The notes under the pieces were generated by a model. That model was not told the origin of the DNA and did no database searches. It was given only the letters and a program-made list of their open reading frames with translations. Of a DNA stretch of 64,000 nucleotides, positions 1-49,977 are shown piece after piece. A program made the translations under genes and the position numbers. The DNA is from a virus. Its lineage: Duplodnaviria > Heunggongvirae > Uroviricota > Caudoviricetes. Numbering within the stretch: the stretch's first letter is position 1; the number at the start of each line of letters is the position of its first letter. The stretch lies in the IMG/VR virus record IMGVR_UViG_2740892442_000004; one strand, given 5' to 3'.

Positions 1-671
1 AGTTTTCTAATATGCTCATCGGCTATTCTGCCAACAAATTCATAACGTTTTGTGTCGGGGCCAAGAGCTATATCCCTTGTAAAGTACTGCTGAGAACCGG
101 CTTTGACCCAGCATTCAATCTGATAAACTTCCATTATTAGCCCACCATATGTAGCGTAGGCATATTTGAGATTCTCGTCTCTTGGAACCTTTGCCCATAC
201 GCCACGCGTAGCTTCATATAATGCCAGAGCGGACATTCCTGACTTGTAGGTGCTGTTTAGCAGGAAGGCAAGACCGGCGTGCTCAGGAGCAATTTCAGTT
301 TCCTCTTGCAGCACTAAGTGATGGTAGGCGTCCAGTGATATTCTGCCCATCATGGAACCACTTCCTCGTACCTTATTCGTAAGCTCTCCGACCCCCATAA
401 GGTCGATGCATGTCGCCTCAACAAGTTTGGCTGTGGTTTCATCCATACCATGACGAAGAATATCTATGCCTAATTTTTTATTAGCCAAAAGTTCTTTGAT
501 CCGCATGGATTTGGGAGAGTCATCGGGATACTTGATGTGATCGAGACAACGAGTCGATTTGCCTTTTCCTATGTAAAACGGTCTTTTCATCTTGTCTTCT
601 GTATCATAGAGACAGTAAACATAGTATTTAGCCTTATCCAATGATCTCGCGTATACCGATAAATCGTCCAT
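1..671 (-). CDS. GIY-YIG-like nuclease domain protein (partial; 3' end lies beyond window start)
   Basis: Reverse translation from ATG at 669-671 gives MDDLSVYARSLDKAKYYVYCLYD...KRPFYIGKGKSTRCLDH, matching GIY-YIG spacing; no stop before position 1. Confidence 0.5.
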   Translation of the reverse strand, partial: MDDLSVYARSLDKAKYYVYCLYDTEDKMKRPFYIGKGKSTRCLDHIKYPDDSPKSMRIKELLANKKLGIDILRHGMDETTAKLVEATCIDLMGVGELTNKVRGSGSMMGRISLDAYHHLVLQEETEIAPEHAGLAFLLNSTYKSGMSALALYEATRGVWAKVPRDENLKYAYATYGGLIMEVYQIECWVKAGSQQYFTRDIALGPDTKRYEFVGRIADEHIRK

Positions 672-781
672 TATTGCATCTCTTAGCTACTGACTAATGC
701 GTTCTATTTTACACATAAGTTTTTAATCAATTTAACAGGCTCAAAGTGTAGAGCTTCTGGGCGTCTAAGACGACAAGTTAT

Positions 782-837
782 GCCTGCTTCTGTATATATA
801 AATAATAAGTAACTTATTAAATATATACGGAAGCAGG
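782..837. repeat. Long imperfect hairpin (about 17 bp arms, AT-rich loop); second copy at 47756-47812
   Basis: gcctgcttctgtatatat ... atatatacggaagcagg; near-identical arms in the second copy. Confidence 0.5.
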
Positions 838-953
838 TCTTTTAAAAGACACCACCAGAACAACTCCCTTCCGTTTCCACTTCCAAAAACTGCCACCAGT
901 CGCTATCATCCGCTCATTGTGATAAGTAAGTAACTACCTACCAGGTGAGACAC

Positions 954-1694
954 ATGAGCCAAATCTTTTTCGATACCATCGACAACGACCAGTACGACTT
1001 CATGACAGAGTGGAATACCGCTGTTATGGACAAGTGGGTCGCTGAAAACATTGGTTTGTCGCGCTGTAAAGACGAGGCTGAACTCTTCGAGACGAAGTGG
1101 TTTGATTACCGCGACATGCATCCTCTCATGGCCACCTGTCTTTTTACGGAGGCATACAAACGTCAGTACTCAAATATCATGCTGACGCACGGTCGTGAAC
1201 ACTTTGAAACAGCTCCGTTCACCACCGGGTTAAAACGCTTGCCTTATCAGGAGTTGTCGACTGCTAATAAAACGTCGCTATGGAAAGCACGCCAGTTTGC
1301 GGATCGCTATTGCTGCTCATACGACTACTTTATCTCCACTGTTCTTTCCGCAGCTGCACGACGTCTGTGGGACAAGCTGCCTCGCCCACAGCATTTGTGG
1401 CAGCCAGAACTGATTGAGATATTTGAAGAGAAATTAGCCAGACGCGCAACAACCCGTCTGGATGACTCTCTGGTTAGCTTTAAGCATATGGGAGACATGC
1501 AGTTCAACCCGATTCAGGAAAGCTATTTTGAGTGGATTCTGGAGCGTTTGCGCACCATCCCTCGCAGTAAGCGCATACGCGCAATTTTCTCCGCTATCTG
1601 GCTAATGGAAATCGTTCCAGAGCGCCTTATTTCCGCCCACTTTCCAGAAGAACTGGAAGAAGCACGGCGGTTTATTGATCCCCTATCTAATTAA
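954..1694 (+). CDS. hypothetical protein
   Basis: ORF with AGGTGAG Shine-Dalgarno 5-11 nt upstream of ATG at 954. Confidence 0.5.
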   Translation: MSQIFFDTIDNDQYDFMTEWNTAVMDKWVAENIGLSRCKDEAELFETKWFDYRDMHPLMATCLFTEAYKRQYSNIMLTHGREHFETAPFTTGLKRLPYQELSTANKTSLWKARQFADRYCCSYDYFISTVLSAAARRLWDKLPRPQHLWQPELIEIFEEKLARRATTRLDDSLVSFKHMGDMQFNPIQESYFEWILERLRTIPRSKRIRAIFSAIWLMEIVPERLISAHFPEELEEARRFIDPLSN

Positions 1695-1704
1695 CTAATA
1701 CTAG

Positions 1705-1718
1705 AAAACAATTTGTTT
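1705..1718 (+). promoter_or_regulatory. Palindromic AAAACAATTTGTTT element upstream of helicase gene
   Basis: One of seven near-identical palindromes about 20-45 nt upstream of start codons. Confidence 0.4.
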
Positions 1719-1737
1719 AAAAAACAAAGGAAAGCAC

Positions 1738-3078
1738 ATGACCGAACTTTGCCATACAGGACGCGGGCTGTCCGAAGAGTTTGATGAAGATTTCCAGAAC
1801 AGACTGACGGCATATTTTTGTCGTGATCACGAGTTTCTTACTCGTGCGGGAGATCTGGTTGTGCCTAGCCAATTTGCCAATGCGGCCAATGCCATATTGG
1901 TTAATATGGTTTCGGGCTATTACCGTATGTACAAGAGCGCGCCCTCTTCATCTGCAATTCTGGATATGCTTAAGCGTGCGAAACGCGATAAGACTATCCG
2001 TGAGGAACTATTCGCCGATGTTGTTGCTGCGTTTAAGCGCATCCTTGCAGAAAAATTGTCCGATACCTCGTACATGGTTGACCAGGTATCAACCTTCGCA
2101 AAAAGCGTAGCGTTTGATGATGCTCTGATTAAGGCTGCTGAACTGAAAGAGAAAGGCGACTTTCAGGGGGCGATGGCAATCATGGCCAAGGTTCAGCAGA
2201 TTGGATCGAACGAAGCGACCGGAATCTATGACTACTACACCTCCGCAAGTGAGCGATTGAAAGCGCGTGAATATGAGGCTTCAGAGGAGTATGTACCAAA
2301 CAGTATTACAACTGGACTCCCTCTTCTCGATAGGTTGCTGTACCAAAAAGGCTGGGCAAAGCGCGAAATGGTGCTCTTCATGGGGTTCGCTAAATCCGGT
2401 AAATCGACCGCAATGGGTGAGTTTTCCATAAACGCAACGCTTGCTGGCTACAATGTTCTGTATCTCTCGCTGGAGGTTCACACCACCATTTTATCCGACC
2501 GTTTTGATGCAAGATTGTCGGAGACGGAAATGTCCAAGCTGGTGGAACGGCGCGATGAGGTTCATCGTAAGTTGGCAGAGTTGGGAGCCACGAAGGGGAT
2601 TGGTAGTTTGTGGGTTGTCGAGCGTCCGTCAGGAAGTATGTCACCGGCAGACCTGGATCGTATGCTTAACAGCATGAAAGCCAATGGCATGGTGCCTGAC
2701 ATGGTTGTTGTCGACTACGCAGATTTGATGCGTGCCAGTTATGACCTTCGTGATGATCGCGCCAACATTCGTAGTATCTACACCGATTTACGTGCTCTTT
2801 ATGACAAGCATAACGTTGCTGGTATCACGGCGTCGCAAACAAACCGTGAAGGTGGCGCGTCAGAAGTTGCCACAATGATGCACGCTGCCGACAACATCGA
2901 AAAAGTACGTATTGCTGACCTGGTAATAACGATCAACAAAACCGAAGAAGAAGAAGCGAAAGGAGAGGCTCGTCTCTACTTTGCTGGTTCGCGTAACCAG
3001 CAGGGAGGGATCAGCATTCGCGTTAAACAAAACCTCGAACAAATGCGCTTCATTGAGCGAATCTTAGACGTTACCTAA
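1738..3078 (+). CDS. DnaB-like replicative DNA helicase
   Basis: Walker A GFAKSGKST, Walker B-like VVVDYADLM, RecA-fold C-terminal domain, 446 aa. Confidence 0.75.
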   Translation: MTELCHTGRGLSEEFDEDFQNRLTAYFCRDHEFLTRAGDLVVPSQFANAANAILVNMVSGYYRMYKSAPSSSAILDMLKRAKRDKTIREELFADVVAAFKRILAEKLSDTSYMVDQVSTFAKSVAFDDALIKAAELKEKGDFQGAMAIMAKVQQIGSNEATGIYDYYTSASERLKAREYEASEEYVPNSITTGLPLLDRLLYQKGWAKREMVLFMGFAKSGKSTAMGEFSINATLAGYNVLYLSLEVHTTILSDRFDARLSETEMSKLVERRDEVHRKLAELGATKGIGSLWVVERPSGSMSPADLDRMLNSMKANGMVPDMVVVDYADLMRASYDLRDDRANIRSIYTDLRALYDKHNVAGITASQTNREGGASEVATMMHAADNIEKVRIADLVITINKTEEEEAKGEARLYFAGSRNQQGGISIRVKQNLEQMRFIERILDVT

Positions 3079-3159
3079 AAAATAAGCGTGGAGAACACCT
3101 CCACGCTTGATTCATTGGTGAAACAACTTTTCTTTTGCCAAACCACAAAAGAAAAACAC

Positions 3160-4341
3160 ATGAGCCTTTATGTTATATCAACATTTAGGTTGGTCACAAT
3201 ATTGCCTGTTAAAAGTGGAATTATCGTGAGCGAGCTGAAAGAGCTAATTACCGAATTAGATTTTGAACAATGGTTGGATACTGAAGGTATCGTTTATCGA
3301 CGTGGAAGCGTGAGTGCTCGCGGTCGTGAAGTGAATATCAAGGAGTGTCCGGTATGCGGCAGCTCCAACTGGAAGGTATATTTCAATCTGACCAGCGGCG
3401 TAGGCAAATGCTTCGCTGGTGATCATCCCGAAGAGATTCAGTTCAATAAGCTGGTTTTCCTCAAGCACTACAGCGGCAAATCACGACGACAGTTCGAGGA
3501 ATATGTGCAGAACGCTCTTCTTTCGCAGGGGTGGGCACCAAAGAAAGAAGAAATAGTGCTTGCAAGCACAGTCGAGTTAGAGGGGCCACTTGCACTCCCT
3601 CGTCATTACGAACTTCCTATAGATGGCCGTCTTCCAGACTATCTGGTTGAACGAAACATATCGCCTGAAATGGCAAAGTATTTTGACCTACGATACTGCG
3701 TCGAAGGTAAGCACGCCTATGTAGATCCGTATACAGATCAGGTTAAAGGACAGATATTCGATATGCGAATACTGATACCGGTTTACGATCTGGATGGGGT
3801 AATGAAGACATTTCAGGGACGAGACATTACCGGTACAGCAGAACGCCGCTACCTCTTCCCTATGCAGCTGCCGGCGTCGGGTAAGTTTCTCTACAACGGC
3901 CACAACGCAGTCGGGAAACAAACAGTCGTTGTGTGTGAAGGGGCATTTGACGTAATGGGCGTGAAGCGAGCCATCTTCGACGAAAAGACGCTGAGGGATT
4001 ATGTAGAGCCAATTGGCACGTTCGGGATGCACTTGTCCGGAAATATGAATGAGGACGCTGAAGATCAGTTGGGCGCGTTCCTGACGCTCAAGGCGCGTGG
4101 ATTACGCAACGTCATCATGATGTGGGATAGCGAGAAGCAAGCGATCCGCAACACCATGTCGGCGGCCAAACGCCTCACCAGCATCGGACTAAATGTCAAA
4201 GTGGCCTGTCTGGGCGAAGAAGGTCTCGACCCCGGCGACGCGACGCCAGAGCAGATCCTCAAAGCCTATTATCGTGCCAAGCCTTACTCCAAACAGCTGG
4301 AGTTAAAATGCAAAGTGCTCGGTATCAAGTCACTCGTGTAG
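3160..4341 (+). CDS. DNA primase (zinc ribbon + TOPRIM)
   Basis: CPVCGSS...CFAGDH zinc-binding motif and VVVCEGAFDVMG TOPRIM-like motif; start set at ATG after conserved AAAGAAAAACACATG leader (ORF opens at 3088). Confidence 0.65.
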   Translation: MSLYVISTFRLVTILPVKSGIIVSELKELITELDFEQWLDTEGIVYRRGSVSARGREVNIKECPVCGSSNWKVYFNLTSGVGKCFAGDHPEEIQFNKLVFLKHYSGKSRRQFEEYVQNALLSQGWAPKKEEIVLASTVELEGPLALPRHYELPIDGRLPDYLVERNISPEMAKYFDLRYCVEGKHAYVDPYTDQVKGQIFDMRILIPVYDLDGVMKTFQGRDITGTAERRYLFPMQLPASGKFLYNGHNAVGKQTVVVCEGAFDVMGVKRAIFDEKTLRDYVEPIGTFGMHLSGNMNEDAEDQLGAFLTLKARGLRNVIMMWDSEKQAIRNTMSAAKRLTSIGLNVKVACLGEEGLDPGDATPEQILKAYYRAKPYSKQLELKCKVLGIKSLV

Positions 4342-4342
4342 T

Positions 4343-5395
4343 TTAAGTTGTGGGAGACAGACGGTTCAGGACAAACGCTGCGATATTATTTAGTGCTATA
4401 TTTAGCAAACTTGCATCATATGTTTGGTCGTTATCCTTAGGTTTAAAATTGCTGATACTGACTGTCTCACTGTGCTCATTTTCATAGAAACGTTTACTGC
4501 TTGAATCTAGGCGTTTGAGGACGTAAATTTGCCCAAATTCAATCCACTCACCTTCACCATTGAGTCCGCTCCCTGTTTTGACTGAGATGAAGTACTTTGC
4601 CAGCTTGGTTGTAATGCAGTCTTCATTTTTTTCTATGCAAACCTTAATGCCGGCGGCTTTCAAACTACGATAAATGCTGTTTGGATATGCCCCACTATAG
4701 ATTTCGCTGCTTTCAATGATAATGACGTCGTATTCTTCCTTTGGCTCAATAGATAAAGCTTCAGGCTCCAAATCATCCTTGTGAAAAATAAATCCTAAAA
4801 GACGCTCAAGTTCATCTGTTAATTTGAACATGGGGTTCGCTTGGATCTCGCCAGCCCTGTCTTCGTAGACGAGACCCGAGGTTATGAGCTTATTTAGCGA
4901 TCTCAGAGCCATTCCACTTTTTTGTGATGTGAGGCTAACTTGGGCTAATACAGTTGATTTATAGCCTTTTATTGGCGAGCTTGTTGTGATGTAAAGTTTG
5001 CGCGCATATTCAATATCAAAGCAGGTTAACCCACTCAGTATGTGGATAAAAAATAGTTTTTCATCGTCGTTAAGGCTGCTGCGGGCTAGGCTTACCGTCA
5101 AGCGAATGTAGTATTCTGTTTTCTTGTCTTCATCATCAAGCACGAGCTTTTTGACTAACGCCGAAAAGTGTTCTCTTGAGATATCGACCTCATCGTCGCA
5201 AATTTCACCAATGCCCATAATGTAACGGTTGAATCGATCACGACAAGTCGTCGCATTTATCTCTGAGAACAACGTGAACATTTTTTCCGCTGCCTCAATA
5301 TGAGGTCCAACAAGCGGTATAGATTTGGCAAACGCCAAACCAGTTTCTTTCAATACCTTCCTGTGTTGCATCACGTTTTTGGACAACGTTGTCAT
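4343..5395 (-). CDS. hypothetical protein, AT-rich, opposite strand; possible PD-(D/E)xK-like C-terminal region
   Basis: 350 aa ORF convergent with primase; lower GC than flanks; YDVIIIE...VCIEKNED weakly nuclease-like. Confidence 0.45.
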   Translation of the reverse strand: MTTLSKNVMQHRKVLKETGLAFAKSIPLVGPHIEAAEKMFTLFSEINATTCRDRFNRYIMGIGEICDDEVDISREHFSALVKKLVLDDEDKKTEYYIRLTVSLARSSLNDDEKLFFIHILSGLTCFDIEYARKLYITTSSPIKGYKSTVLAQVSLTSQKSGMALRSLNKLITSGLVYEDRAGEIQANPMFKLTDELERLLGFIFHKDDLEPEALSIEPKEEYDVIIIESSEIYSGAYPNSIYRSLKAAGIKVCIEKNEDCITTKLAKYFISVKTGSGLNGEGEWIEFGQIYVLKRLDSSSKRFYENEHSETVSISNFKPKDNDQTYDASLLNIALNNIAAFVLNRLSPTT

Positions 5396-5578
5396 AGACC
5401 TAAGCCTTGTGTGTTTAACGTATTAGTTAAGTGAAATCATATAGAAGTGACCTGACAGCTACAACTGGACAAGATTAAGAGCATTTTTTATAAACGAAAA
5501 TAAACGCCTACATTGATAAGTAGATACATACTTATATTTCTGTAAGAATATGCTCGACGAAGGAATTGAGGAACCTTT

Positions 5579-6373
5579 ATGAAAGCAGATATTCAGAAGT
5601 CCGTTACCGAAATCATCGACAAATCAGGCGTAGAAATTGATACAGAAGAGCGCCAGAAGATTATCGATGAGGCGATCCAGACTGCGCTGGAGCACATCGC
5701 CACGTCTGTGAGCACCGCACCTCTTTCGGAAGGCTCGAAATACATGCGGGTCTGGGTTCGTTTTGGGGAGTCCCCGGAGCTGCCTGGTGTTAAACAGAAA
5801 CGCGCGGCACTCGTGGCGTTCACTCGCAAAATGAAGGACGCAACGGTCGAAGTACGCGCCGGTGCATGGTACGACGGTCGCGTTGTCTACACCAATCAGG
5901 CAGTGTGCGATGAAGGTGAACGGTTTGAGGAAATTGTCGACGCGACTCTTCGCGCGATCAAAGGCAGGGCTGGCGTAGAGGATGATCCTTCTATCGCGGC
6001 GTTCCTGAGCATTGTCGAACTGCCTGAAGTTACCGAACGCGTTACAGATCTGACAACCCCACCTGGTTTGCTGGAGTTGGTGGTCAGTGGCGATACCAAA
6101 AAAGCCGTTGAGCGCATTCGTGAGGTGGAATACGGCATCATCTGCGATATGTGCCGCAGCGACTTAGACCTGGTGCGCATCATTGTCGACGCGGGTCAGA
6201 CATGTGACGGTGTGCTCGCCAGTTTTGCAGGGCAGGTGGCACGCCTGGCCAACGAGCTGCCGATGATTAAACAGGAGGCAAAATCCTACGCCGTCCACCA
6301 TGCCAACGATTTACTGGAACCATACCGGTTCGAAGCCGCTCAGGACAAAATGACTGGCTGGGCTACCTGGTAA
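5579..6373 (+). CDS. hypothetical protein
   Basis: 264 aa ORF, GAGG Shine-Dalgarno before ATG. Confidence 0.5.
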   Translation: MKADIQKSVTEIIDKSGVEIDTEERQKIIDEAIQTALEHIATSVSTAPLSEGSKYMRVWVRFGESPELPGVKQKRAALVAFTRKMKDATVEVRAGAWYDGRVVYTNQAVCDEGERFEEIVDATLRAIKGRAGVEDDPSIAAFLSIVELPEVTERVTDLTTPPGLLELVVSGDTKKAVERIREVEYGIICDMCRSDLDLVRIIVDAGQTCDGVLASFAGQVARLANELPMIKQEAKSYAVHHANDLLEPYRFEAAQDKMTGWATW

Positions 6374-8924: not shown

Positions 8925-9702
8925 AAACATCACGATAAGTATTTACTTACTTATCTTTTATGTATAAGATGACTTTGTTTTCGTTGAGACGCGACTGTTT
9001 GAACTTAAATACAAGTGCAAACGAAGAAGTCTATCTGGCAGTAGCCTAATAAGCCAAACACCAGCGAGGTCAGTTTCCAGCCTCGTTACCGAAATGGGAC
9101 ACACTGAGCGAGTGTGATTGCAGAACGCAGGAGGGAACATGAGTGTTCCCTCCGATGAAGTAACAGAATGGGCGGTTGGTATATTTTCAACTCCATATGA
9201 CTCCCGGATTCTTAGCCACTGACCGCCCATCCTGTTACGTCATTTTGTTCAATTATGTCGTTTATACTGGGTTAAAAAGCGGCGACGTAGCCCGGCTGGT
9301 ATGGTTAGCCAGCACACAACGTTGAGGCCATTACATTTTTATCAATTCTAAGGTTCTATTCACAGAGATACCGGCGAGCGTTGATATGTAACATGTTGGG
9401 CAAACATTCAATCGGAGTAGTGGCCTCAACGTTGTGAAGACGGGATTGTTGTGTAGGTTTAACCACTGTTGCCATTGGTGCCTGTTTTCACAACAAATGA
9501 TTCCATACATCACATTGTATAAATTACAAAGTAGGTGCTGTCCTCAGAAACATCATCTACTTAAAGATTTTGCCTTCTACTATTGAGCGAAGTCGAAAGC
9601 GTCTGGCACTAACGAAAAGTGCAAGTAGCGGTGCGTTTCCTGGCAGAAACTAAACCGTCGCGATTGGCACTGTTGAGTAATAAATACTGGCAGTGCTGAA
9701 TT

Positions 9703-9777
9703 GATGGTGTAGCTCAGCGGTAGAGCAGTTGGCTGTTAACCAACTGGTCGGTGGTTCGAATCCACCCACCATCGCCA
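9703..9777 (+). tRNA. tRNA-Asn (anticodon GTT)
   Basis: Cloverleaf: acceptor gatggtg/caccatc, D-arm tagctcagcggtagagc, anticodon loop ctGTTaa, T-loop ggttcgaatcc, CCA end. Confidence 0.75.
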
Positions 9778-9782
9778 ATTTA

Positions 9783-9869
9783 GGGGAGTTAGTCCGTAGA
9801 GGTAGCGGTGTAGACTGTAAATCTACTGTCATGGCGACTCGGGTGGTTCGACTCCATCACTCCCCACCA
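9783..9869 (+). tRNA. tRNA-Tyr (anticodon GTA), long variable arm
   Basis: Acceptor ggggagt/actcccc, anticodon stem-loop gtagaCTGTAAAtctac, T-loop ggttcgactcc, CCA end. Confidence 0.65.
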
Positions 9870-9873
9870 AATT

Positions 9874-9949
9874 GCCGGTTTAGCTCAGTTGGTAGAGCAG
9901 TCGCTTTGTAAGCGAATGGCCAGCGGTTCAAGTCCGTTAACCGGCACCA
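9874..9949 (+). tRNA. tRNA-Thr (anticodon TGT)
   Basis: Acceptor gccggtt/aaccggc, D-arm tagctcagttggtagagc, anticodon loop ttTGTaa, T-loop ggttcaagtcc, CCA end. Confidence 0.65.
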
Positions 9950-10269
9950 ACACAACAGGTAAGAGCATTGGGCGAATCGGCGATACTGACCCACAAGGCC
10001 GTAAATCGATAGAGTCAGACCAGTGCTCTTACCGTTGTGAGGAAGTGCAGCTCTTTGAAGCAACCAGAAGATAAGCATCTGGCTTCACAACACAACGATA
10101 ATATCATTACGGTTAATCGTCGTTCATGTGCACAATGACTGGTCGAAAGGTAGTGATCTTACCGTTGTGATGAATGCACAGGCTGATGTGCCGCAACTAC
10201 AGTAGTGCGCGCTTTGCGGGGCTTGCTACAACCCTGTGTCGGAGTTCAGCACCGACCATCACAATAGCT

Positions 10270-10356
10270 GGAGAGTAGGGAGCATGGTGCTCAAGCGGTC
10301 TTGAAAACCGTCCCATTGTGCAAACGATGATGGTTCGATTCCATTACTCTCCGCCA
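10270..10356 (+). tRNA. tRNA-Ser (anticodon TGA), long variable arm
   Basis: Acceptor ggagagt/actctcc, anticodon stem-loop gcggtCTTGAAAaccgt as in enterobacterial tRNA-Ser(UGA), T-loop ggttcgattcc, CCA end. Confidence 0.7.
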
Positions 10357-10514
10357 GACACAGCGTTGAGCGGTTTGGCCTTTTAATCAACTCGATTAAG
10401 ACTCCGCTAACATAAACCAGACCGCTCAACGCTGTGATAGATAATTACGGCAGACGTTCTTAACCATAGCTTGCTAACATCCTAGCAACACTTTTTTTCA
10501 GCGCAAAATTCAAA

Positions 10515-12442: not shown

Positions 12443-13545
12443 ATGAAAAATAGCTTTGACAGAGCACGCGCTGCGGAGAACACCTCAAAAGAGGCGATAG
12501 AGTATCTCGAAAGAGCATCTCAAATGCAGGCCGTTATGATCTCGCAGGTTAGCAATGACATGAGATTCTCGGACGCATTCATGTTATTCACTCGCTTATC
12601 TCTGCTGATAACCAGACGTCGGCCAGAGATCGCTGTTCATTGTATTTTGATACATGTTTTGCCGCACATTGCCGATGTAAAAGTAAGTGACATTAATAGG
12701 TTCATGGTGAACCAACTGGTCAACCCACTAATACTGGATGGCAAAATTGTTATGGGCCGCCGCGTTTTCTCTCTGATGAAGCAGTTCCTTAGCTGGTGCG
12801 CCTTCCAGGGGATGATAGACGTGTCACCGTTAAACGATATGTCACTTAACAAAGTTGCCGGTGGCGCAAAGCCCACACCTCGCGAGCGGAAGCTGACCGA
12901 CGCAGAGGTATGGGTGTTCTGGAATATATGGGACTACTTCAATGTGTGTGCTGGTACAAAATGGGCGGCCAGGCTATGTCTTGTATCCGCAAGACGACCT
13001 GACGAAGTACTGCGGGCTAAAAAAAGTGAGTTCAATCTTAAGCGTGGGGTTTGGAATCAAGGCAAGAGGAACAAATCTGCCCGTGAGCATTCTCTGCCTT
13101 TAAGCTCATTAATGCGCACTTGTATTGAAGAGTTGTTCGAATATGGTAAAGACAGCCAGTGGCTCGTGCCTTCGAATAAAAAAATCGGGAAAGACCTTCC
13201 TATGTCTAAAGTGGCAATAGCCAGGCATTACGTCGTATTCTGGAACGACCAGAACTGATGGAGCTTGAGCCATTTACACCCCGAGATTTGCGCCGTACTG
13301 CGCGTAGTTACTTCCCAGCATTAGGCATAAGCCAGGAGGTATCACGTAAAATCATGAACCACAGTCTTGAGGGGATAGATCGGGTCTACGACCGGCACGA
13401 TTATATGGACGAGATGCGAGACGCCTTAGAAAGTTTCTCGACGTACATCGCATCAATCGTAGAGCAACCGGATTTAGACGAAATTGACCACAAATTTAAG
13501 GGAGATCGTCTATCAACAGAGCTTATTCGTGTAAATTTTTCATAG
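12443..13545 (+). CDS. tyrosine recombinase/integrase, apparently frameshifted near 13258 (possible pseudogene or indel error)
   Basis: Upstream ORF has LVSARRPDE box I-like Arg; downstream ORF has TPRDLRRTARSYF and MNHSLEGIDRVYDRHDY catalytic motifs; the two ORFs abut in different frames. Confidence 0.5.
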
Positions 13546-21658: not shown

Positions 21659-21930
21659 AAGAATTATGGCGCTTGTTGAGGAAGTCACTCCTCTTACGCA
21701 CTTTGTTTTGCCATGCCGGCAGTTAGCTTCTGCCTTTGACTATTCATGCGGCAACCCCGCATTTCGCCACAATGGGCAATTCACTTTTATGGAATAAACT
21801 GGCCGTTGTGTCGATTTAATTAGCATGGCCTTACCATGCTAATTTATTCAACTTGTACAATCCTACAAATCTATCCACTCAGGCTTACACCGTCTTCGTT
21901 ATTGTAGAAATGAGGATCATCAGCGTTGAA

Positions 21931-22146
21931 TCAGCTTAGAGCAACGACATTTGCTGCTGCTGGGCCTTTAGCCCCATTCTCGATAGAGAATTCGACCTGC
22001 TGGCCTTCTTCCAAAGTGCGGAAATTATTACTCTGAATTGCCGAAAAATGTACAAAAACATCTTTACTGCCATCAGCAGGAGAAATAAAGCCAAAGCCTT
22101 TATCAGAGTTAAACCATTTTACTAAACCAGTCATTTTATTAGACAT
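21931..22146 (-). CDS. cold-shock protein (CspA family)
   Basis: [21 protein letters not shown]...[11 protein letters not shown] motifs; close to enterobacterial CspA. Confidence 0.8.
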
Positions 22147-22475
22147 AGATATTACCTTCTTAATTTTGTGAGCCACATAGTGCGGCGAGAATTTGATCTG
22201 TATAGATTGGGACTTACTTAGGCACTTAAGGAGGAGACTCACGAAGAAGGGAAATCAGAAGATAACACTGAACTGAGACTGCTTTACTAAAACTGCTTAC
22301 ATAAGGTCTGTCTTGCAAACCAACGATGCTATTAACGCATACCCCTTCTTTTCATGCAACCTTTATTTTTCAAAGATAACTAATTTTTGTCACCATTGGT
22401 TTAGTAAACGTTAACGAACCAGACGATGCCAGACACCTTTACAGAGAACAGATGCCCGCCAATTGGCGGGCATCA

Positions 22476-30224: not shown

Positions 30225-30284
30225 AGAAAATACACTAAATGCAAACTGACTGCGGCACGTTCCGCAGTCATATTTCATAGTCGT

Positions 30285-30695
30285 CACCGCTGACAGCATA
30301 CACAATCAACTACCGCTGATAGCATATCGAGAGTCTATCTCACCGCTCACAGCATACTTTACTCGATTTTTTACCGCTGACAGCATACTTAAGACATTGC
30401 ATGAATAATGTGTACCGGTATGGGTATAACCAGAACAAAATTACCGCTGGCAGCATACGAAGGTCTGACATATACCATTAATTACCGCTGATAGCATATC
30501 CAAACTGGAATGCACTCTTCGAGGTTAGTAACCACTGGGGAGGTATGACAGAGCATTGAGTGGTGATAGATGATTTACCGCCCACAGCATACGTTCATCT
30601 CACTATACCGCTGGTAGCATATATTTAACCGTTTACAGCATACTTTTCAGAAAAATAGCCGCTGATAGCATACATTTCACCGCTGACAGCATATC
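30285..30695. repeat. Iteron array, about 11 copies (consensus ACCGCTGACAGCATAC), downstream of repA
   Basis: Degenerate direct repeats at irregular 20-70 bp spacing. Confidence 0.75.
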
Positions 30696-31788
30696 AAAGC
30701 AGTTTGAGACTATTGGAAAGGATCTCAATCATCTTGATATTTTCAGGCGTCAAATTCTGCGAAAGTTCGGTTATCTTGTTGATAATGTTCTGTTTGGCAT
30801 CAATTTCCCCAGCTTTCTCATCTAGTTTTTTGGGTTCGATGTCTTCAGGTTTTGGCGGTGCGACTTTGAGTTTTGGATTGCGGCTGTGAATCTGGATATA
30901 GATCGACCGCCCTCGCTTAATCTCGCTGTATTCGAGATAACCCAAATCTTGGAGAGCTTTTAAGCCGTTGCGTATAGTCTGATTCTGCGAGCTGACATTC
31001 CTGCTACTCAAATTGAGTCGCGCACGCAATCGAGCAAGCGATACCGGCGCAGGCTTGGTTGGAAGACTTTCGATGAAGGTGTACAGAGCCTGTGCTGTTT
31101 CTTTGCGTGGTAGCTTATTGATAACCTTTAACTGCAAAAGAACCTTATGGTCAAAGCGATATAGTTCGGCCAGCTTCGGTTCTGCATAGAACACCACCGT
31201 ATCTTTCTGCTCGTTGTAGTCCACGCTATTGATGAGGTGCACCATCAGAAGCGAGATCTTGTTAGAGCCGTCGACGTTCTTTTCTTCATACGTTCTCTGG
31301 AAAGACAGAGTTGTACGCATGATCTTCAAAAGACTGTTTGTAAGCCGGTCGCGGAGTGTTTTGCGGATCTGTGACGATGGATAGCCACAAAACTTCGCAA
31401 ATTTCGTGATGCTTAACTCGACACGACCGTTAGGTTCGCCGTATTCTGCCAGCGAACGCACAACGCCCACCCACGTTTTGAAATCATGATCCATGTCGAG
31501 ACGAGGACCGGTTATCTTGATATCGGAATAGCCTTCAGAACGGGCTACTTCGAGCTGAACAAGCTCCTTTGAAGCATCGATCTCATTTGGCTTGTTACGC
31601 TTGCTGTATTTTGTCCCCTTGAGCGTGGGCACGAACAATCCCAGCCGCATCAACGCAATTGGTTGGACTGTATTGTTGCTATTAGGGACAAGTTCCCCTG
31701 TGTACAATTCAAGGGAACCTTCTTCAAAGTTGTCGAGATTATCTTCTACTTCTTTGTTATTTTTACCTTTTTTATTTTTTGTGGACAT
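30694..31788 (-). CDS. repA: Replication initiator RepA-like protein
   Basis: Gene bracketed by iteron arrays; start set at MSTKNKK (AAGG Shine-Dalgarno) because ORF N-terminal extension to 31908 overlaps upstream iterons. Confidence 0.6.
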   Translation of the reverse strand: MSTKNKKGKNNKEVEDNLDNFEEGSLELYTGELVPNSNNTVQPIALMRLGLFVPTLKGTKYSKRNKPNEIDASKELVQLEVARSEGYSDIKITGPRLDMDHDFKTWVGVVRSLAEYGEPNGRVELSITKFAKFCGYPSSQIRKTLRDRLTNSLLKIMRTTLSFQRTYEEKNVDGSNKISLLMVHLINSVDYNEQKDTVVFYAEPKLAELYRFDHKVLLQLKVINKLPRKETAQALYTFIESLPTKPAPVSLARLRARLNLSSRNVSSQNQTIRNGLKALQDLGYLEYSEIKRGRSIYIQIHSRNPKLKVAPPKPEDIEPKKLDEKAGEIDAKQNIINKITELSQNLTPENIKMIEILSNSLKLL

Positions 31789-31807
31789 GTGGACACCTTT
31801 GTCATTC

Positions 31808-31910
31808 AACCGCTGACAGCATACTTGATTTGCCGCTGACAGAATACCAAAAACAGTTGGCAGCATACGGTGAACCGCTGACAGACTATCAATTACCGCT
31901 GACAGCATAC
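31808..31910. repeat. Iteron array, 4-5 copies, upstream of repA (origin-proximal)
   Basis: aaccgctgacagcatac, gccgctgacagaatacc, accgctgacagactatc, taccgctgacagcatac. Confidence 0.7.
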
Positions 31911-31950
31911 ATGAACATGGCTTCAGACCAGTCGTGGCGCGGCTTACAGC

Positions 31951-33008: not shown

Positions 33009-34094
33009 ATGACTTTGCCATACGGCGTCATTTCTGACTGCCACTACCACAAATGGGATGCGTTCTCCACGACGAACGCTGAGGGGCTTAACTCCAGACT
33101 TGAAATACAGTTGGAAGCAACGAAAGAAGCAGCCATCGCCATGAAGAAGGCCGGTTGTAAGTACATGTTGGTTGCCGGTGATACATTTCACGTCCGAGGA
33201 ACTGTGTCCCCTTCTGTTTTGCATTACGTAACTGAAACGTACAAGTGGATTATCAACGAGCTTGATCTGACAGTAGTAATGCTGGCCGGTAATCACGATC
33301 TTGAAACCAACGATTCAGTATATAGCGCCAACGCAGCAGCATCGCTGAGTTCTATCGGCGTGGTAATCGTATGTGGCAAGCGCCCACACTCAATAAAAAT
33401 TGGTGATGTGACTGTCCACCTGATTAGCTGGCGTAACAATCATGCGGAGCTTATCAGCGATCTGAAAGCATTACGTAAGAGCGTAGAAGGTGATAATCAT
33501 GACGTTGTTATCCATACATCCATTAACAAAGCCATTCCAACAATGCCTGACGTCGGTATCGATGCGCAGGAGTTAAAGGATATCGGCTTTCGTCTCGTGC
33601 TTAGTGGGCATTACCACAACCACAAAGAGGTCATTCCTGGAGTTATCAGTGTCGGTGCACTGACTCATCAAAATTGGGGAGATGTTGGATCTCTGGCTGG
33701 CTACATGATCGTAAACCCGGACGGCAGTTTCAGTCACTACGAAACCAGTGCGCCTAAATTCATTAACCTGGAAGATGATGTTGCTGATGACCAAATTCGC
33801 GGCAACTACGTGCGTTTCCGCGCCGTAATTGAGAACGATGAAGAAGGCATTAAGTACCAGAACATCCTCAAAACAATGGGTGCAAAAGGTGTCGTGTGCA
33901 ACTTCATCCGTAAGTCATCAATGATGGAAGGGACAGCCAGCACAACTGAAACCAGCAAAATCGATAGCCTGGGAGAGTCGGTATCTGCTTATTGCAAGAT
34001 TGTCCACGATACTGACGGCGGATTTGATCTGAGCAAATTGGATATTTTGTGTCAGGAAATCCTCACCGAAGCGGAGAGTTCGGAGGCTGTGTGA
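33009..34094 (+). CDS. SbcD/Mre11-like nuclease
   Basis: Calcineurin-like phosphoesterase motifs DCHYH, GDTFH, GNHD, GHYH. Confidence 0.7.
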   Translation: MTLPYGVISDCHYHKWDAFSTTNAEGLNSRLEIQLEATKEAAIAMKKAGCKYMLVAGDTFHVRGTVSPSVLHYVTETYKWIINELDLTVVMLAGNHDLETNDSVYSANAAASLSSIGVVIVCGKRPHSIKIGDVTVHLISWRNNHAELISDLKALRKSVEGDNHDVVIHTSINKAIPTMPDVGIDAQELKDIGFRLVLSGHYHNHKEVIPGVISVGALTHQNWGDVGSLAGYMIVNPDGSFSHYETSAPKFINLEDDVADDQIRGNYVRFRAVIENDEEGIKYQNILKTMGAKGVVCNFIRKSSMMEGTASTTETSKIDSLGESVSAYCKIVHDTDGGFDLSKLDILCQEILTEAESSEAV

Positions 34095-36240: not shown

Positions 36241-36973
36241 ATTAAGCCGCTCGCAGTTTTTGCAGGTATTTGCAGTGATGCAGTCGATAAAACTGATCAA
36301 TGGGCATACTTCCAATGGTGCGGCTCCACGTATTCTGTGGGGCAGCAACAATATTGACGGAGTACAATTCGCCGCGTTGCTTGGTCTAATATCCGAGACG
36401 CCATTGATGCAAAGTTTGAAATCACTACCACCTGGATGTATTGCGCCGATCCTGATTAATCCTTTTGTTGAGGGGGGATATCTTCCCAACGTCGGGCCTG
36501 GGTTTATTGCATCCCATGAAACTGAAGATCTTAACATTAATAGCGAAGGGTTCTTTGGGGGAATGGGTGCGCATCACTGTATGGCTTTCACGAACCTTAT
36601 TCGACTTGCCAATAAGCGGGTGGATAGTTTGGCATCGCCAGGTGATGCTTTTACTGGTTTCCTTATCCAAAGGAGGGATAAAAAGTACAGTGCGGACAAA
36701 CTACAGTTTGTTGGTAAGTATGGAGAAATGGTAGAAATCGAACTTCAGCTCCCTCATGTTTTAGCAAACGATAGTGCAGACAGTCGGAGGCTATTGGGCA
36801 TCATGCGTCATTTCATAGCAAGTGGTGTTAAACATGCCGCAGATAAACGTGTCACGCAGGAAAATGAGTATTCAGACTTTGCAAACTATCCCCAACCAAC
36901 GTTGCAAACGGCAATAGTAGCCAATTCGTTGGAGGCGAGATTATTGGAAAACCCTATATGGGGAACATGGTAA
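36230..36973 (+). CDS. hypothetical protein
   Basis: 247 aa ORF. Confidence 0.45.
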   Translation: MSFKLSRSQFLQVFAVMQSIKLINGHTSNGAAPRILWGSNNIDGVQFAALLGLISETPLMQSLKSLPPGCIAPILINPFVEGGYLPNVGPGFIASHETEDLNINSEGFFGGMGAHHCMAFTNLIRLANKRVDSLASPGDAFTGFLIQRRDKKYSADKLQFVGKYGEMVEIELQLPHVLANDSADSRRLLGIMRHFIASGVKHAADKRVTQENEYSDFANYPQPTLQTAIVANSLEARLLENPIWGTW

Positions 36974-44732: not shown

Positions 44733-45002
44733 ACCGTCTGTATGTCGCTCGTATTGATGCGTTGATGTGCGGGGAACTGACAAAAATTCACCTGCATCCG
44801 CAAAGGGGAGATCTGCAAACCTTCGTCGTTTCCAACCGATATCGCACGGTTGAAGCAAGAGCCAGATCAGTGATGAGAATGCTAGATAACGCTGTAGAAA
44901 AGATAGAAAACCGGTTCTGTGGCCGAGTGACCGTTCATTAGAAATTGTTCGCCTCTTCGACATTGCGACAATAAAACTCTCAAAATGGGTTAAGGATAAA
45001 AA

Positions 45003-45421
45003 ATGTTTAGTGAAATGTTGCTTGAAGATGAACTGGATCGGAAAACAACAGAGGCTTTGATTCGTGTAGCGGACGAACATTCCCGGTCGCTTATGAGCGA
45101 TCGAGAGGCTCGTCTGGCTATTCGTGCCATATTCGAACTGCGCAGGGGCTTGTTGGTACACAAGTGGGTGAAGCCATTAACATCGCCATGTCTCAGTTCA
45201 GTGAAGGCAGTAAAAAGCCTCTGTTTCCTATGCATTTGATGCTGGCTGGTGGCACGGTGCTTTATATCTCTGTTTGTCTGGATAGCAACCAAATCAATAT
45301 TCTCAACACTGTGTCAGGTAAGTGGAAAGATCCGATTGTCTGTGAAACCAGTGAAGAAACTTTGAAAAAAGCGGCTCAATTTGTACGTAGCGCACTACTT
45401 AAGGGCGCTAAGAAGTTGTAA
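45003..45421 (+). CDS. hypothetical protein, apparent frameshift at GGGG run near 45170
   Basis: ORFs 45003-45239 and 45164-45421 overlap in adjacent frames across a homopolymer. Confidence 0.35.
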
Positions 45422-45430
45422 GGAGTTCTG

Positions 45431-45988
45431 ATGACAACGATTGTTGCAGGCATCGATATCGAGTCTACGGGACTGGATTTCCTTGCTGGTCATAAAATTA
45501 TTGAAATCGCAATTACCCGCTATGAACTGGAGACACAGAGACATATTGATAGTCTGGAGATGCGTTTTAACCCTCGCAGAAACATAGATCCGAAAGCTCA
45601 AGCCGTTCATGGCATTTCATTGGAACAGCTCGCAGCTGAACCTTTGTTGTCAAATCATGCCAGCGAAATTGGCGCTTATATGGGGGCATGTAGTGTGTGG
45701 GTTGCTCATAACGGCGAAGCATTTGATATACCATTTATTCGACACGAGTTTTCAGGGTATGGAGTAAGACTGCCAGAAGTTCCTGTTATAGATACTATGT
45801 TATCGGGATTGTGGGCCACAGAAGACGGTAAACGTCCCCGCCTTGAAGAGTTGGCCTTCTCTCTTGGCTTTATATACGATCATGCCAAAGCACATAGTGC
45901 CTTATATGACACAAACTTAATGATGCAATGCTTCTTTAAGGCACGTAATAAGTACGGATTTTTTAAATTACCCTCTGAAATTGTGTAA
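45431..45988 (+). CDS. DnaQ-like 3'-5' exonuclease (DEDDh family)
   Basis: Exo I GIDIESTGL; Exo II HNGEAFDIPF; Exo III HSALYD. Confidence 0.7.
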   Translation: MTTIVAGIDIESTGLDFLAGHKIIEIAITRYELETQRHIDSLEMRFNPRRNIDPKAQAVHGISLEQLAAEPLLSNHASEIGAYMGACSVWVAHNGEAFDIPFIRHEFSGYGVRLPEVPVIDTMLSGLWATEDGKRPRLEELAFSLGFIYDHAKAHSALYDTNLMMQCFFKARNKYGFFKLPSEIV

Positions 45989-46146
45989 AACAAAAGCCTA
46001 CTTTAAAAAGTTTAAAGTAGGCTTTCTTTTAAAGAACAGTCGCCTTTCAATCATTTCCTGCCTGTATTTAATACTTTTCCGCCTGATAGGTTTAGTCAAA
46101 ATGTAGCCATCGAAACGCAAATGTAACCAAACAGAAGGAGACTTAC

Positions 46147-46956
46147 ATGAGTTCGGTTGAAAATGTAATGACAAATGATGATCTGGACGAGCTGGCAGCC
46201 ATGTTGCAATCACTTGATGAACCAGTAAAAAAAGCTGCACAGGTTGAAAATACTGATGATATTGACGATCTGCTGCTCGGCCTAGATGCTGGCGTAGCCA
46301 TGAGTTCTGATGATGTTGCCGAAGAACTGTTCAATGAAGAAAAAGCAGGTGATTTCAGCTCAGCTTTAAATGAGTTGGAGTTAGCGCATGAGCCTATAAA
46401 CGTAATTAACGCTGAAAGTGGTGAAGCTGCCGAAAACGAACCAGAACAGTTGGGGATCATCGAGGTTGAAGGGTGTGTTGAGATTAATGATGAATTAAAA
46501 GTTCAACAGTCAAATGATAGCAACACAAATAAAAAAGCGCGTACTGCAAGAGGTCCTCGTTTTGCTCTAAGTGATAAAGATGATGCGTTTTTCAATAAAG
46601 CGGGTTTAGAGAAAGATATTTTTTTAGACGCTTACGATAACGCGCCTGTCAAAGCAAAGGATAAGATATTAAACCTTCTTAATTGGTTTAGCGGAGGTCC
46701 AGATATTAGTGTTTACACGGTAATTTCCATGAGACACCTTCTCACAGAAAAGAAGGCTACAAGTAATAGTATTAAGATTGCTTTAATGAGCAATCCAGAA
46801 AAACCGTATCCGCTTAACACTGCGTCAACTCAGGCTGGGCAAATGATGGCTGTATTTCCAGCGACAGGAATTGCCGTTAGAGACGGTGGAAATCTAACAT
46901 TGAACGAAGAATCACCGATCGTTAAGAAGTTTGTCGCGGAGTACACTATTGGATGA
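46147..46956 (+). CDS. hypothetical acidic protein
   Basis: 269 aa, D/E-rich N-terminal half. Confidence 0.45.
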   Translation: MSSVENVMTNDDLDELAAMLQSLDEPVKKAAQVENTDDIDDLLLGLDAGVAMSSDDVAEELFNEEKAGDFSSALNELELAHEPINVINAESGEAAENEPEQLGIIEVEGCVEINDELKVQQSNDSNTNKKARTARGPRFALSDKDDAFFNKAGLEKDIFLDAYDNAPVKAKDKILNLLNWFSGGPDISVYTVISMRHLLTEKKATSNSIKIALMSNPEKPYPLNTASTQAGQMMAVFPATGIAVRDGGNLTLNEESPIVKKFVAEYTIG

Positions 46957-47014
46957 CGTTCCCCTACTGAAAATAAAGCCCATAGAGAGCTTTATAGTGC
47001 TGGGTAAGCCAATC

Positions 47015-47058
47015 ACATACCCAGCACCACAAAAACGCGCCAGAGAGCTTCTCGTTTG
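47015..47058 (+). terminator. Rho-independent terminator (long stem)
   Basis: acgcgccaga ... tctggcgcgt followed by tttatttg. Confidence 0.55.
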
Positions 47059-47139
47059 CATTTCTGGCGCGTTTTATTTGATTGCCAGACATAAAATCAA
47101 ATGCAAAAATAGGTATTTACTTACCTATCGAGAAAGAAG

Positions 47140-47733
47140 ATGATTGCAGCCGAAAAAATCAAACAGCGAAAGCGCGACAACTCTCTTCGTGACCTCTGGA
47201 GAACACCTGACTGGCTGTTTTCTGCCATTCAACGTTATCTTGGAGTGACATTTGATGTTGACGTTGCCTGCAACAAGGACAATGCAAAGCTGCCTAATTT
47301 CATAGGCGTTGAGCGTGATGCTTTGAAATCTGAATGGGGACAGCCAGGTACAATTGCCTTCCTCAATCCACCCTACTCCAAAATCTCCCCCTGGATTGAT
47401 GCGGCTATACGTGAGCAGGCTCGCGGAGTTACAACAGTGATGCTAATTCCTCAATCCCTAGATACAAAGTGGTATGAGCGTGCAACAGAGTGTGCGAATG
47501 AGACGATTATTCTGTCTGGTGGCCGCGTAGCGTTTGTCGAGCCTGACGTCAATCTGGGTCAGGTAGAAGTAAACATCAACCCAGGTGGCAGTATGCTCGT
47601 TGTTTTTCGAGGATTCTGTCAGGACGCTGGGCACTCTATAAGCAAGATCCCTTTGGACGTCATGAAAAGTCTGGGAGGGTATGATCCTGCGAATGTGATC
47701 AGGAAAAAAAGACCATCAAAGAAGGCTGCTTAG
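47140..47733 (+). CDS. DNA N6-adenine methyltransferase (phage Dam-like)
   Basis: WRTPDWLF N-terminus and FLNPPYS catalytic motif; 197 aa. Confidence 0.7.
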   Translation: MIAAEKIKQRKRDNSLRDLWRTPDWLFSAIQRYLGVTFDVDVACNKDNAKLPNFIGVERDALKSEWGQPGTIAFLNPPYSKISPWIDAAIREQARGVTTVMLIPQSLDTKWYERATECANETIILSGGRVAFVEPDVNLGQVEVNINPGGSMLVVFRGFCQDAGHSISKIPLDVMKSLGGYDPANVIRKKRPSKKAA

Positions 47734-47755
47734 TTTGTTCTGGCGTCTGTAATTA

Positions 47756-47812
47756 GCCTGCTTCTGTATATATAAATAACTACATATTAATTATTAATAT
47801 ACGGAAGCAGGC
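47756..47812. repeat. Long imperfect hairpin, second copy of element at 782-837
   Basis: gcctgcttctgtatatat ... atatacggaagcaggc followed by tgttttg. Confidence 0.5.
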
Positions 47813-47918
47813 TGTTTTGTATCAGAGACTCCAGACCTGAACATCACTACAGAATCCACTAGAACCCCTTCCCAGACGCTTTAAAATCGATTTTATGAAT
47901 CACTTTAAGGAAACTAAC

Positions 47919-48149
47919 ATGTCATACCCGACTAATGTCGTTGCGCTCGTAGAGAGCGATTTTCTGGCCCAGGCCCGTGAAATGATGAAAGACCGCGAGC
48001 AGGCTTTCAACTTGTACGAATGGGCAATTAAGTGCTTGCATCTTGGGGAGCATCGCGAACTTGTTGAACAGCTTTTAGGTGAGTTGATCAACGAGGTGTT
48101 TGCCTTGAATGTTCAACTACATGGTCGAGAAAATAATCAATCGAAATGA
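47919..48149 (+). CDS. hypothetical protein
   Basis: ATG 47919 preceded by AAGGA; ORF opens at 47895. Confidence 0.4.
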   Translation: MSYPTNVVALVESDFLAQAREMMKDREQAFNLYEWAIKCLHLGEHRELVEQLLGELINEVFALNVQLHGRENNQSK

Positions 48150-48169
48150 TAGATAAGTACAAACTATTC

Positions 48170-48650: not shown

Positions 48651-48734
48651 TTTATTTTAATAATTATTAACACGCACGCGTGTGCGCACGCGCGAGGAAA
48701 AAAAATCGGCGCGGCGCTTGATTCAGGAGTTTAT

Positions 48735-49325: not shown

Positions 49326-49473
49326 TAAGTAAGTGTTTACCTATCATTTTAAATCATGTATCTTATCGGCGTCAGGATGACAATGTGTCGGTAAGACACA
49401 GTTCCAGGATGGAACGAGAAAGGCGGCTGGCAATCGCCAGCCGCAACTCTTTCTGACACTGGATGGAGTCCAC

Positions 49474-49968: not shown

Positions 49969-49977
49969 GGCGGTTGT

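Follow-up and report, generated by a model that had tools for sequence, protein, structure and literature searches.

The window (the whole stretch of DNA analysed, 64,000 nucleotides long) carries two long hairpins, which are members of an undescribed, widely distributed and clade-specific family of boundary elements, akin to known kinds of element. A core of 55 nt is the only sequence common to all members of the family at the borders of gene blocks. With a probability of about one half, these hairpins, formed in + strand RNA, end or insulate three gene blocks and are possibly RNase III substrates upon read-through, the core also anchoring the exchange of modules. Both the termination and the processing are what we infer from the elements; that the conserved core also provides a patch of homology at the cargo slot is supported directly, by comparison of genomes.

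Megablast analysis against phage records revealed 96-98% identity of window positions 1-6000 and 45000-51000 with Escherichia phages CMS-2020a, PhiR41_1 and Cyrano, and the same segments are 79-82% identical to Salmonella phage SSU5 and ~77% identical to several Klebsiella phage-plasmids. These identities identify the window as part of an SSU5/pHCM2-type phage-plasmid; judged in this way, it is 64 kb of a circular E. coli replicon of ~108 kb, of which the + strand carries nearly all genes. The GIY-YIG cargo gene at the left end of the window (Table 1) sits in a variable slot, bounded by the partition genes on one side and by hairpin copy 1 on the other. Downstream of copy 1, a block of the form CTTCCAAAAAC...AGTCGCTAT(C/G)AT is kept in the E. 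coli, Salmonella and Klebsiella lineages; this block, a candidate, is a possible promoter of the replication genes, and a consensus promoter scan gave no call for it. The small proteins flanking the hairpins, searched for a partner factor, matched no Pfam families.

The preliminary description had reported two hairpins with near-identical arms around an AT-rich interior, and both are confirmed. In a repeat-finder alignment, 782-837 and 47756-47811 are 82% identical over 56 nt; the two copies have identical arms, of 17 nt each, and different interiors. The 18-mer GCCTGCTTCTGTATATAT occurs on the + strand at exactly two places, 782 and 47756, and its imperfect complement is located at 821-838, and at 795-812 of the second site; this amounts to four matches at ≤3 mismatches, against 0.01 expected from shuffled sequences. 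The inverted arms (783-799/821-837 and 47755-47771/47797-47813) contain one T..G position per pair. In copy 1, the lower stem of 17-18 bp (783-799 with 821-837, including the wobble T791..G829) is surmounted by an internal loop rich in A, above which 803-809 pair with 813-819 in a 7-bp upper stem capped by a loop of 3 nt. The inner 7-bp helix had been overlooked earlier, and each hairpin is thus about 25 bp long. Five of the lowest 8 bp of the stem are G-C pairs, which makes it a stable stem-loop with a GC-rich base. The + strand RNA folds with an energy of −30.2 kcal/mol (z −7.1) for copy 1 and −30.8 kcal/mol (z −5.8) for copy 2, and none of 200 shuffles is as good. Copy 1 is situated, as had been described, in a divergent intergenic region, the neighbouring genes starting at 671 (−) and 954 (+), and copy 2 just past the Dam-like methyltransferase gene and before a T-run.

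Table 1. Coordinates of the hairpins and of the features around them in the window
Feature	Start	End	Strand	Details
Cargo gene, LEM-3-like GIY-YIG domain	1	671	−	Pfam PF22945, E 4e-7; runs off left end of the window
Extended palindrome, copy 1	755	860	+	TTCTGG 755-760 with CCAGAA 855-860; GTCT 763-766 with AGAC 847-850
Inner hairpin, copy 1 (type 1)	782	838	+	covariance model 83.8 bits, E 1e-14
T-run after copy 1 stem	838	843	+	TCTTTT
Conserved block 3' of copy 1	881	909	+	-10-like TATCAT 904-909; weak -35-like TTCCAA 881-886
First gene 3' of copy 1	954	1694	+	246 aa, without Pfam family; heads DnaB-like helicase and primase block
Adenine methyltransferase gene	47140	47733	+	stop codon 22 nt upstream of copy 2
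Extended palindrome, copy 2	47737	47837	+	GTTCTGG 47737-47743 with CCAGACC 47831-47837
Inner hairpin, copy 2 (type 2)	47755	47813	+	covariance model 75.2 bits, E 7e-13
T-run after copy 2 stem	47814	47819	+	GTTTTG

The search for further copies, which had been recommended, located a third one outside the window and none extra inside it. In the closest relative, CP053388.1, this copy precedes the genes for the small (terS) and large terminase by ~100 nt, and over the 55-nt core it does not differ from copy 1. A covariance model, for which 23 distinct variants of the element were used, detects exactly two copies in the window and three each in CP053388.1 and SSU5, every one in gene orientation, and no diverged extra copies above noise in these three sequences. 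The copies are named type 1 (before the helicase/primase block, window 782), type 2 (after the methyltransferase gene, 47755) and type 3 (before terS). Between them, the three hairpins delimit three blocks on the circle: one with the genes for virion, lysis and partition, one with those for replication and nucleotide metabolism, and one with regulatory and miscellaneous genes. Besides the third copy, the preliminary description had missed the conservation across genera and an outer inverted repeat, which makes the element ~100 nt long.

This outer repeat, of consensus GTCTGGGAG...CTCCCAGAC, surrounds all three types, at a distance from the core of 10-14 nt on the upstream side and 14-30 nt on the downstream side, and the extended palindrome around each core measures ~100-125 nt. 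The region of copy 1 (143 nt) folds with −45.2 kcal/mol (z −6.6), and the homologous repeat in relatives of copy 1 reads GTCTGG(GAG)/(CTC)CCAGAC. The outer repeat of copy 2 is degenerate in the window and far clearer in the Salmonella and Klebsiella lineages; the outer pairs of both window copies are weaker than those of their relatives. For all types, regions of ~140 nt fold with −43 to −60 kcal/mol (z −6.4 to −10), with outer stems of 9-19 bp, the best and most continuous extended stem being that of the terS copy (−53 kcal/mol, z −8). RNAalifold also predicts the outer stem in types 2 and 3, and a few double changes occur in it, such as G-C to A-U just beyond the core in type 3 and GAGTG/CACTC versus GAGTT/AACTC in type 2. 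In SSU5, the outer stem of type 2 reaches ~19 bp, and the T-run is contained in a one-sided bulge of 15 nt. The one-sided bulge enclosed by the outer stem measures up to 24 nt, which suggests that the extended structure suits a single strand better than a cruciform. A genome-wide protein-binding motif was considered for CCAGAC/GTCTGG and rejected, as its 27 and 24 copies in 64 kb cluster only at the hairpin flanks; it is better read as outer stem.

The core is 79-98% identical between lineages and genera as compared to 46-86% for its flanks, and 85-100% identical between the copies of one genome as compared to ~50% for the flanks. Both the pairing and the sequence of the core appear to be constrained. 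In one Klebsiella genome, the arms of type 1 carry TGTTTC/GAAACA and those of type 2 CTTTCG/CGAAAG, each being self-complementary; since the arms match their own partner and have no common half-site, intramolecular pairing is favoured over a dimeric protein site. The alignment of 23 sequences has 94% of the lower-stem cells paired, as compared to 29-45% when the partner is slid. The support from covariation is modest, because most stem pairs never vary (9 of 17 in the lower stem, with double changes at four) and at least as many pairs with a double change turn up in 69 of 500 shuffles. At two variable stem positions, 10 U.G cells were counted against six C.A cells, with no clear + strand bias of wobble pairs; this wobble criterion gives no proof of + strand RNA rather than DNA.

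In PLSDB, 812 plasmids match the element, including 315 of Klebsiella, 240 of Escherichia, 92 of Enterobacter, 62 of Yersinia and 56 of Salmonella. Among complete E. coli genomes, the element is present in 256 of 5,426 (4.7%), all copies being on plasmids and none on a chromosome, and no annotated feature lies beneath any match. Scanning viral contigs with a degenerate pattern yielded many SSU5-like contigs, from which 46 distinct variants of element plus flank were collected. Seven matches were obtained in species-representative genomes, five of them clear copies, located on Kluyvera and Yersinia (pestis) contigs of phage-plasmid size; the other two are an identical terS-type copy in a Bacillota-labelled MAG and a bare motif without a recognisable right arm in a Chitinophaga MAG. 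Y. pestis plasmids of 96-137 kb (pMT1 size) are among the matches listed, and in these only the hairpin core matches the query, at a single place per record (for example, NC_017169.1, 5349-5405, where 57 nt are 94.7% identical). In the Escherichia, Salmonella and Klebsiella lineages, the three copies occupy orthologous positions. In Aeromonas and Acinetobacter plasmids, which carry distant homologues of the gene after copy 1, unrelated ordinary terminator-like hairpins occur at the type 1 position, and the family is therefore confined to the core SSU5 clade. Rfam 15 gave nothing at gathering score (the best sub-threshold score was 25.8 bits against 62, from generic microRNA-precursor hairpins), and no published description of the hairpin family was found in the literature on SSU5/pHCM2-type phage-plasmids. 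A small RNA, which had been another early suggestion, is unsupported, there being neither an Rfam family nor a convincing promoter.

The suggestion of a strong terminator stands in part: both window copies fit it, having a co-directional gene and a T-run, but termination alone fails to explain the conserved sequence. A run of 3-7 T follows the stem in all seven distinct lineage variants of type 1, and a run of 3-5 T in all seven distinct variants of type 2 (TCTTTT, TCTTTTT, TTTTTTT, CTGTTTT and CTTTTT are examples from the two types), and the opposite strand of these types has no T-run. In the first 8 nt past the stem, types 1 and 2 have 3-7 T, as compared to the U-rich tract of ~7-9 nt taken as the mark of a terminator. 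Type 3 never has more than 2 T in a row (8 of 8 distinct variants). In most genomes, the stop codon of a co-directional gene lies ~20-25 nt before each copy. This strand-specific position downstream of a co-directional gene is seen for copy 2, and for type 1 of SSU5 and Klebsiella, where it follows a + strand gene; in the window, the upstream neighbour of copy 1 is divergent, so that there is no adjacent gene to terminate. A consensus terminator scan called neither window copy, because the loop exceeds the limit of the scan and the T-run is short. The window contains many ordinary short GC-rich terminator-like hairpins with good T-runs; a plain terminator, therefore, needs no such conserved sequence, and the long hairpin represents a distinct class. 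The abundance of ordinary terminators, together with a third copy devoid of a T-run, implies that termination alone cannot explain the conserved sequence. The inner hairpin, folded with 18 + 7 bp, offers the near-continuous double-stranded RNA of about two helical turns or more that is expected of an RNase III site.

The sister plasmid pB-KP1118-1 (NZ_CP155713.1), in which the flanking protein is only ~55% identical, displays hairpins decayed to a common right arm, TATAGGAGCCAGGC, and the covariance model gives a weak match at the terS site only. At its post-methyltransferase site, the left arm is lost, and a canonical GC hairpin with TTTTT directly follows the remnant; this canonical terminator looks like a functional replacement of the post-Dam hairpin. 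All three sites of this plasmid (segment coordinates 13020-13100 and 36475-36540, and ~100-160 in another segment) retain the derived right arm, one of them slightly varied, with decayed left arms, and these half-sites seem to co-evolve even without good pairing. Promoters inside the hairpins were also considered and rejected. For sigma-70, the -35 candidates are inconsistent between types, the scan gave no call at copy 1, and at copy 2 it gave only a minus-strand match at chance level. For a T4-late-type promoter, + strand TATAAATA occurs in the window only inside the two hairpins, and the interior tolerates a probable flip. In CP053388.1 (segment ~33425-33455, minus strand), which is outside the window, a canonical GC hairpin with T-run, AGAGCGCATGGACGCGCTCTGTGTGTTTT, is located directly before the terS ribosome-binding site, and suggests control of the late operon by a leader terminator or by antitermination.

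The breakpoints of homology were surveyed with a 601-nt query spanning copy 1 in 60 plasmids, sampled evenly from the 812 PLSDB matches. In 48 of the 60 (~80%), homology with the window begins at window 779-783 (query 280-284), the first base of the hairpin, and 10 others have the cargo gene of the window and match the query throughout. The core is the joint between variable cargo DNA and the conserved replication block. Across genomes, the slot to the left of copy 1 holds at least five different cargo genes, the GIY-YIG gene in the window and a DUF2971 gene or various hypothetical genes, on either strand, elsewhere. The recombination site envisaged earlier is therefore supported as a mosaic junction, with no sign of a dedicated site for a site-specific recombinase; likewise, the breakpoints looked for among relatives are found at copy 1 and not at copies 2 and 3, which lie inside continuously homologous DNA. 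Core sites of lox, dif or cer type consist of 11-13 bp inverted binding arms around an asymmetric spacer of 6-8 bp, normally in one copy per replicon. Such a site was rejected for the hairpins, whose arms of 17-25 bp surround a 3-nt loop and whose three direct copies would delete essential DNA. Deletions from hairpin to hairpin were rejected as well: relatives of 62 kb and 72 kb keep parAB and the cargo upstream of copy 1, and have, therefore, no deletion end at copy 1.

In the E. coli lineage, the cores of copies 1 and 3 match at 100%; in SSU5, their identity is 91%, a difference which indicates gene conversion, and the core copies are apparently kept alike by this process. At one stem position, C-G, T-A, T..G and C..A all occur, which is the outcome expected from crossovers between variants. 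In Cyrano and one metagenomic contig, the type 1 interior is 84% identical to other type 1 interiors when flipped, as compared to 69-72% unflipped; the flip is suggestive only, because the interior itself is 67-79% self-complementary. An exonuclease and a recombinase are encoded by SSU5.

In the favoured explanation, the hairpins would be cis-acting elements at the borders of three large same-strand gene blocks of SSU5-type phage-plasmids. At copies 1 and 2, the 25-bp hairpin with its T-run would stop RNA polymerase factor-independently and thereby insulate block from block. On read-through, the downstream half (CCAGAC...) would pair with the upstream half (GTCTGG...) and close across the T-run. 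The result would be a bulged duplex of ~40 bp, well suited either to cutting by RNase III or to stabilising the 3' end, in the manner of lambda tI/sib and the T7 R sites. The terS copy, since it has no T-run and the most continuous extended stem, would act in this second mode only, in which read-through and the extended stem are required. It is also conceivable, though distinctly unlikely, that the three hairpins are sequence-specific switch sites, which would terminate and insulate in the plasmid state; read-through in the lytic state would then complete the hairpin of 100-125 nt, to be read by a host or phage factor. Such a switch may consist in sib-like RNase III retroregulation of the block just transcribed, or in DNA extrusion seeding recombination-dependent replication or packaging near terS. 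In either version, this would be the reason for the core sequence, beyond its pairing, being held constant across genera and copies.

The primary role of the 55-bp near-palindrome may, instead, be exerted in DNA, as a portable homology patch at module borders through which the phage RecT/exonuclease or a host system would swap cargo and whole modules between phage-plasmids, with secondary effects on transcripts. This proposal, which overlaps partly with the favoured explanation, is rather unlikely. The breakpoint at window 779-783 in 48 of 60 plasmids and the five or more cargo genes left of copy 1 are in line with it, as are the identity of copies 1 and 3 in the E. coli lineage along with their difference in SSU5, and the T..G and C..A combinations expected from crossover of C-G and T-A variants; the probable flip of the interior in Cyrano and one metagenomic contig, and the exonuclease and recombinase of SSU5, agree too. 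However, the breakpoint occurs only at copy 1, with copies 2 and 3 in continuous homology, and a breakpoint beside a cargo hotspot is expected at the first selected element, whatever its function. The shortened plasmids of 62 kb and 72 kb without a deletion end at copy 1 also speak against it, and the conserved T-runs and outer stem are left unexplained. Mobility of the element itself fares far worse. A neutral small mobile palindromic repeat (of MITE, ERIC or Correia-like kind), inserted three times, is highly improbable even though the elements are imperfect palindromes of ~100-125 nt with terminal inverted repeats, intergenic and multi-copy: the copies keep to three orthologous positions across the Escherichia, Salmonella and Klebsiella lineages, none is chromosomal in 5,426 E. 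coli genomes, and the clear copies of the species-representative scan (5 of 7 matches) are all in phage-plasmid-sized Kluyvera or Yersinia contigs. Moreover, no target-site duplication is visible at the element ends, and the core is more constrained than the flanks.

If the hairpins were sites of RNA processing or stability without termination, RNase III (or another endonuclease) would cut long polycistronic RNA into block-sized mRNAs with protective 3' hairpins, in the way of the T7 R sites. The near-continuous helix of ~25 bp (~40 bp with the outer stem), the repeated, conserved and intergenic occurrence in gene orientation, the terS copy which combines the lack of a T-run with the best extended stem (−53 kcal/mol, z −8), and the ordinary terminators elsewhere in the genome all accord with such a role. 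But RNase III has little sequence specificity, by which the conserved core sequence would go unexplained, and the conserved T-runs of types 1 and 2 suggest that termination matters there; processing alone is, on balance, distinctly unlikely. A cruciform or single-stranded DNA hairpin acting in lytic DNA metabolism is very doubtful. It would serve the initiation or priming of replication, a resolvase break for recombination-dependent replication, or a packaging signal at the terS copy. The (TA)n-rich centre between GC clamps favours extrusion; copy 1 immediately precedes the helicase/primase block, as copy 3 does terS; the records of SSU5 and Cyrano were both opened inside copy 3, 1 nt apart; and the wobble pairs have no clear strand bias. 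Against this, one-sided bulges of up to 24 nt are unfavourable in the extended structure, identical cores at three places would mean three cuts or three origins, and the plasmid origin with its iterons is elsewhere, at 30.3-31.9 kb. The record starts are easily explained by assembly breaks at the repeat or hairpin, or by re-orientation to SSU5, and a sister lineage retains the look of a complete phage-plasmid even though its hairpins have decayed.

The elements share several features with intrinsic terminators of enterobacteria and their phages, namely a stem-loop close behind a gene, a T-run confined to the transcribed strand, a GC-rich base (CCTGCTTC/GAAGCAGG) and the apparent replacement of the hairpin by a canonical terminator in the sister lineage. 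They differ from them in the length of the stem (~25 bp, where 5-12 bp is usual) and the AT-rich composition of its upper half, in the T-run of only 3-7 nt, in the hairpin sequence being conserved between genera and copies, in one member having no T-run and in being nested in a longer palindrome. At lambda tI/sib, the lower stem is completed only by sequence past the T-run, so that the fold of a transcript depends on whether it was terminated or read through; phage T7 has repeated RNase III sites, its R sites. The nested hairpin architecture and the repeated, conserved and intergenic placement in the direction of transcription are shared with these systems. However, there is no sequence similarity to them; unlike the T7 sites, which lie between individual genes, they number three per 108 kb and lie at block borders.

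In the PeSL cassettes of T4-type phages, a short conserved stem-loop repeat flanks variable genes and provides homology for module shuffling; PeSLs are numerous and have a defined early promoter. The cargo slot ending exactly at the hairpin is similar, but here there are three copies, with no demonstrated internal promoter, and one copy borders the variable slot. The ERIC, REP and Correia elements are imperfect palindromes of ~100-150 nt in transcribed intergenic DNA, which can terminate transcription, be cut by RNase III or stabilise mRNA. The hairpin elements resemble these in size and shape, but whereas those are dispersed in chromosomes and variable in presence and absence, the hairpins are limited to one phage-plasmid group and three fixed positions. 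The protelomerase targets (telRL of N15, PY54 and phiKO2) are, likewise, palindromes of ~55 bp in enterobacterial phage-plasmids; the present elements differ in being three direct copies with an AT-rich rather than CG centre, and have no sequence similarity to them. A protelomerase site was rejected, since related records are circular and the SSU5 annotation, which alone was consulted, lists no protelomerase.

SSU5/pHCM2-type phage-plasmids are common in clinical Enterobacterales, and some of them carry resistance genes. The hairpin family is useful for their annotation and for understanding their modular evolution, and represents no new kind of biology. As a three-copy landmark, it shows annotators the borders of three transcription blocks, and copy 1 marks the exact right edge of the cargo slot in which accessory and defence genes are exchanged. 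Read-through-dependent processing, if true, would give a simple handle on how lytic genes stay quiet in the plasmid state. The triple repeat of 55 nt with its hairpin is also a warning for assembly, as contigs and record starts tend to break there. The linear records NC_018843.1 (SSU5) and OV696614.1 (Cyrano) have their ends within the loop of the terS-proximal hairpin (segments 1-21, 3260-3299, 1-20 and 2540-2580); these record starts in copy 3 could reflect an assembly break, re-orientation to match SSU5, or a hint of physical ends.

Several other elements were observed in the window. An iteron of 16 nt, ACCGCTGACAGCATAC, is present in at least 10 copies in two clusters ~1.1 kb apart (30283-30702 and 31806-31918), as expected for a plasmid replication origin flanking a rep gene. 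The palindromic AGAAAACAAyTTGTTTAA, probably a phage promoter or operator motif, occurs at 1703, 14451, 28688, 39999, 50229, 50958 and 63773, and such sites lie just 5' of the ribosome-binding sites of many + strand genes; it is found twice more upstream of terS in CP053388.1 (segment near 33460-33510, minus strand). A second, operator-like quasi-palindrome, ATAAGTAnnnTACTTAT / TAAGTAAGTnnnTACCTAT, is located at 5514, 8933, 27541, 32875, 47107 and 54302, with related sequences at 923-944, 29496 and 49326, and the hairpin loop of copies 1 and 3 (AATAAGTAACTTATT) resembles it. A cluster of four tRNA genes (Asn, Tyr, Thr and Ser) occupies 9703-10356, with long inverted repeats on either side, at 9155-9243 and 10359-10436. 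A full-length Rfam match to the cspA thermoregulator (185.7 bits) at 21906-22324, on the minus strand, indicates that the phage-plasmid carries a cold-shock protein gene with a regulatory 5' leader.
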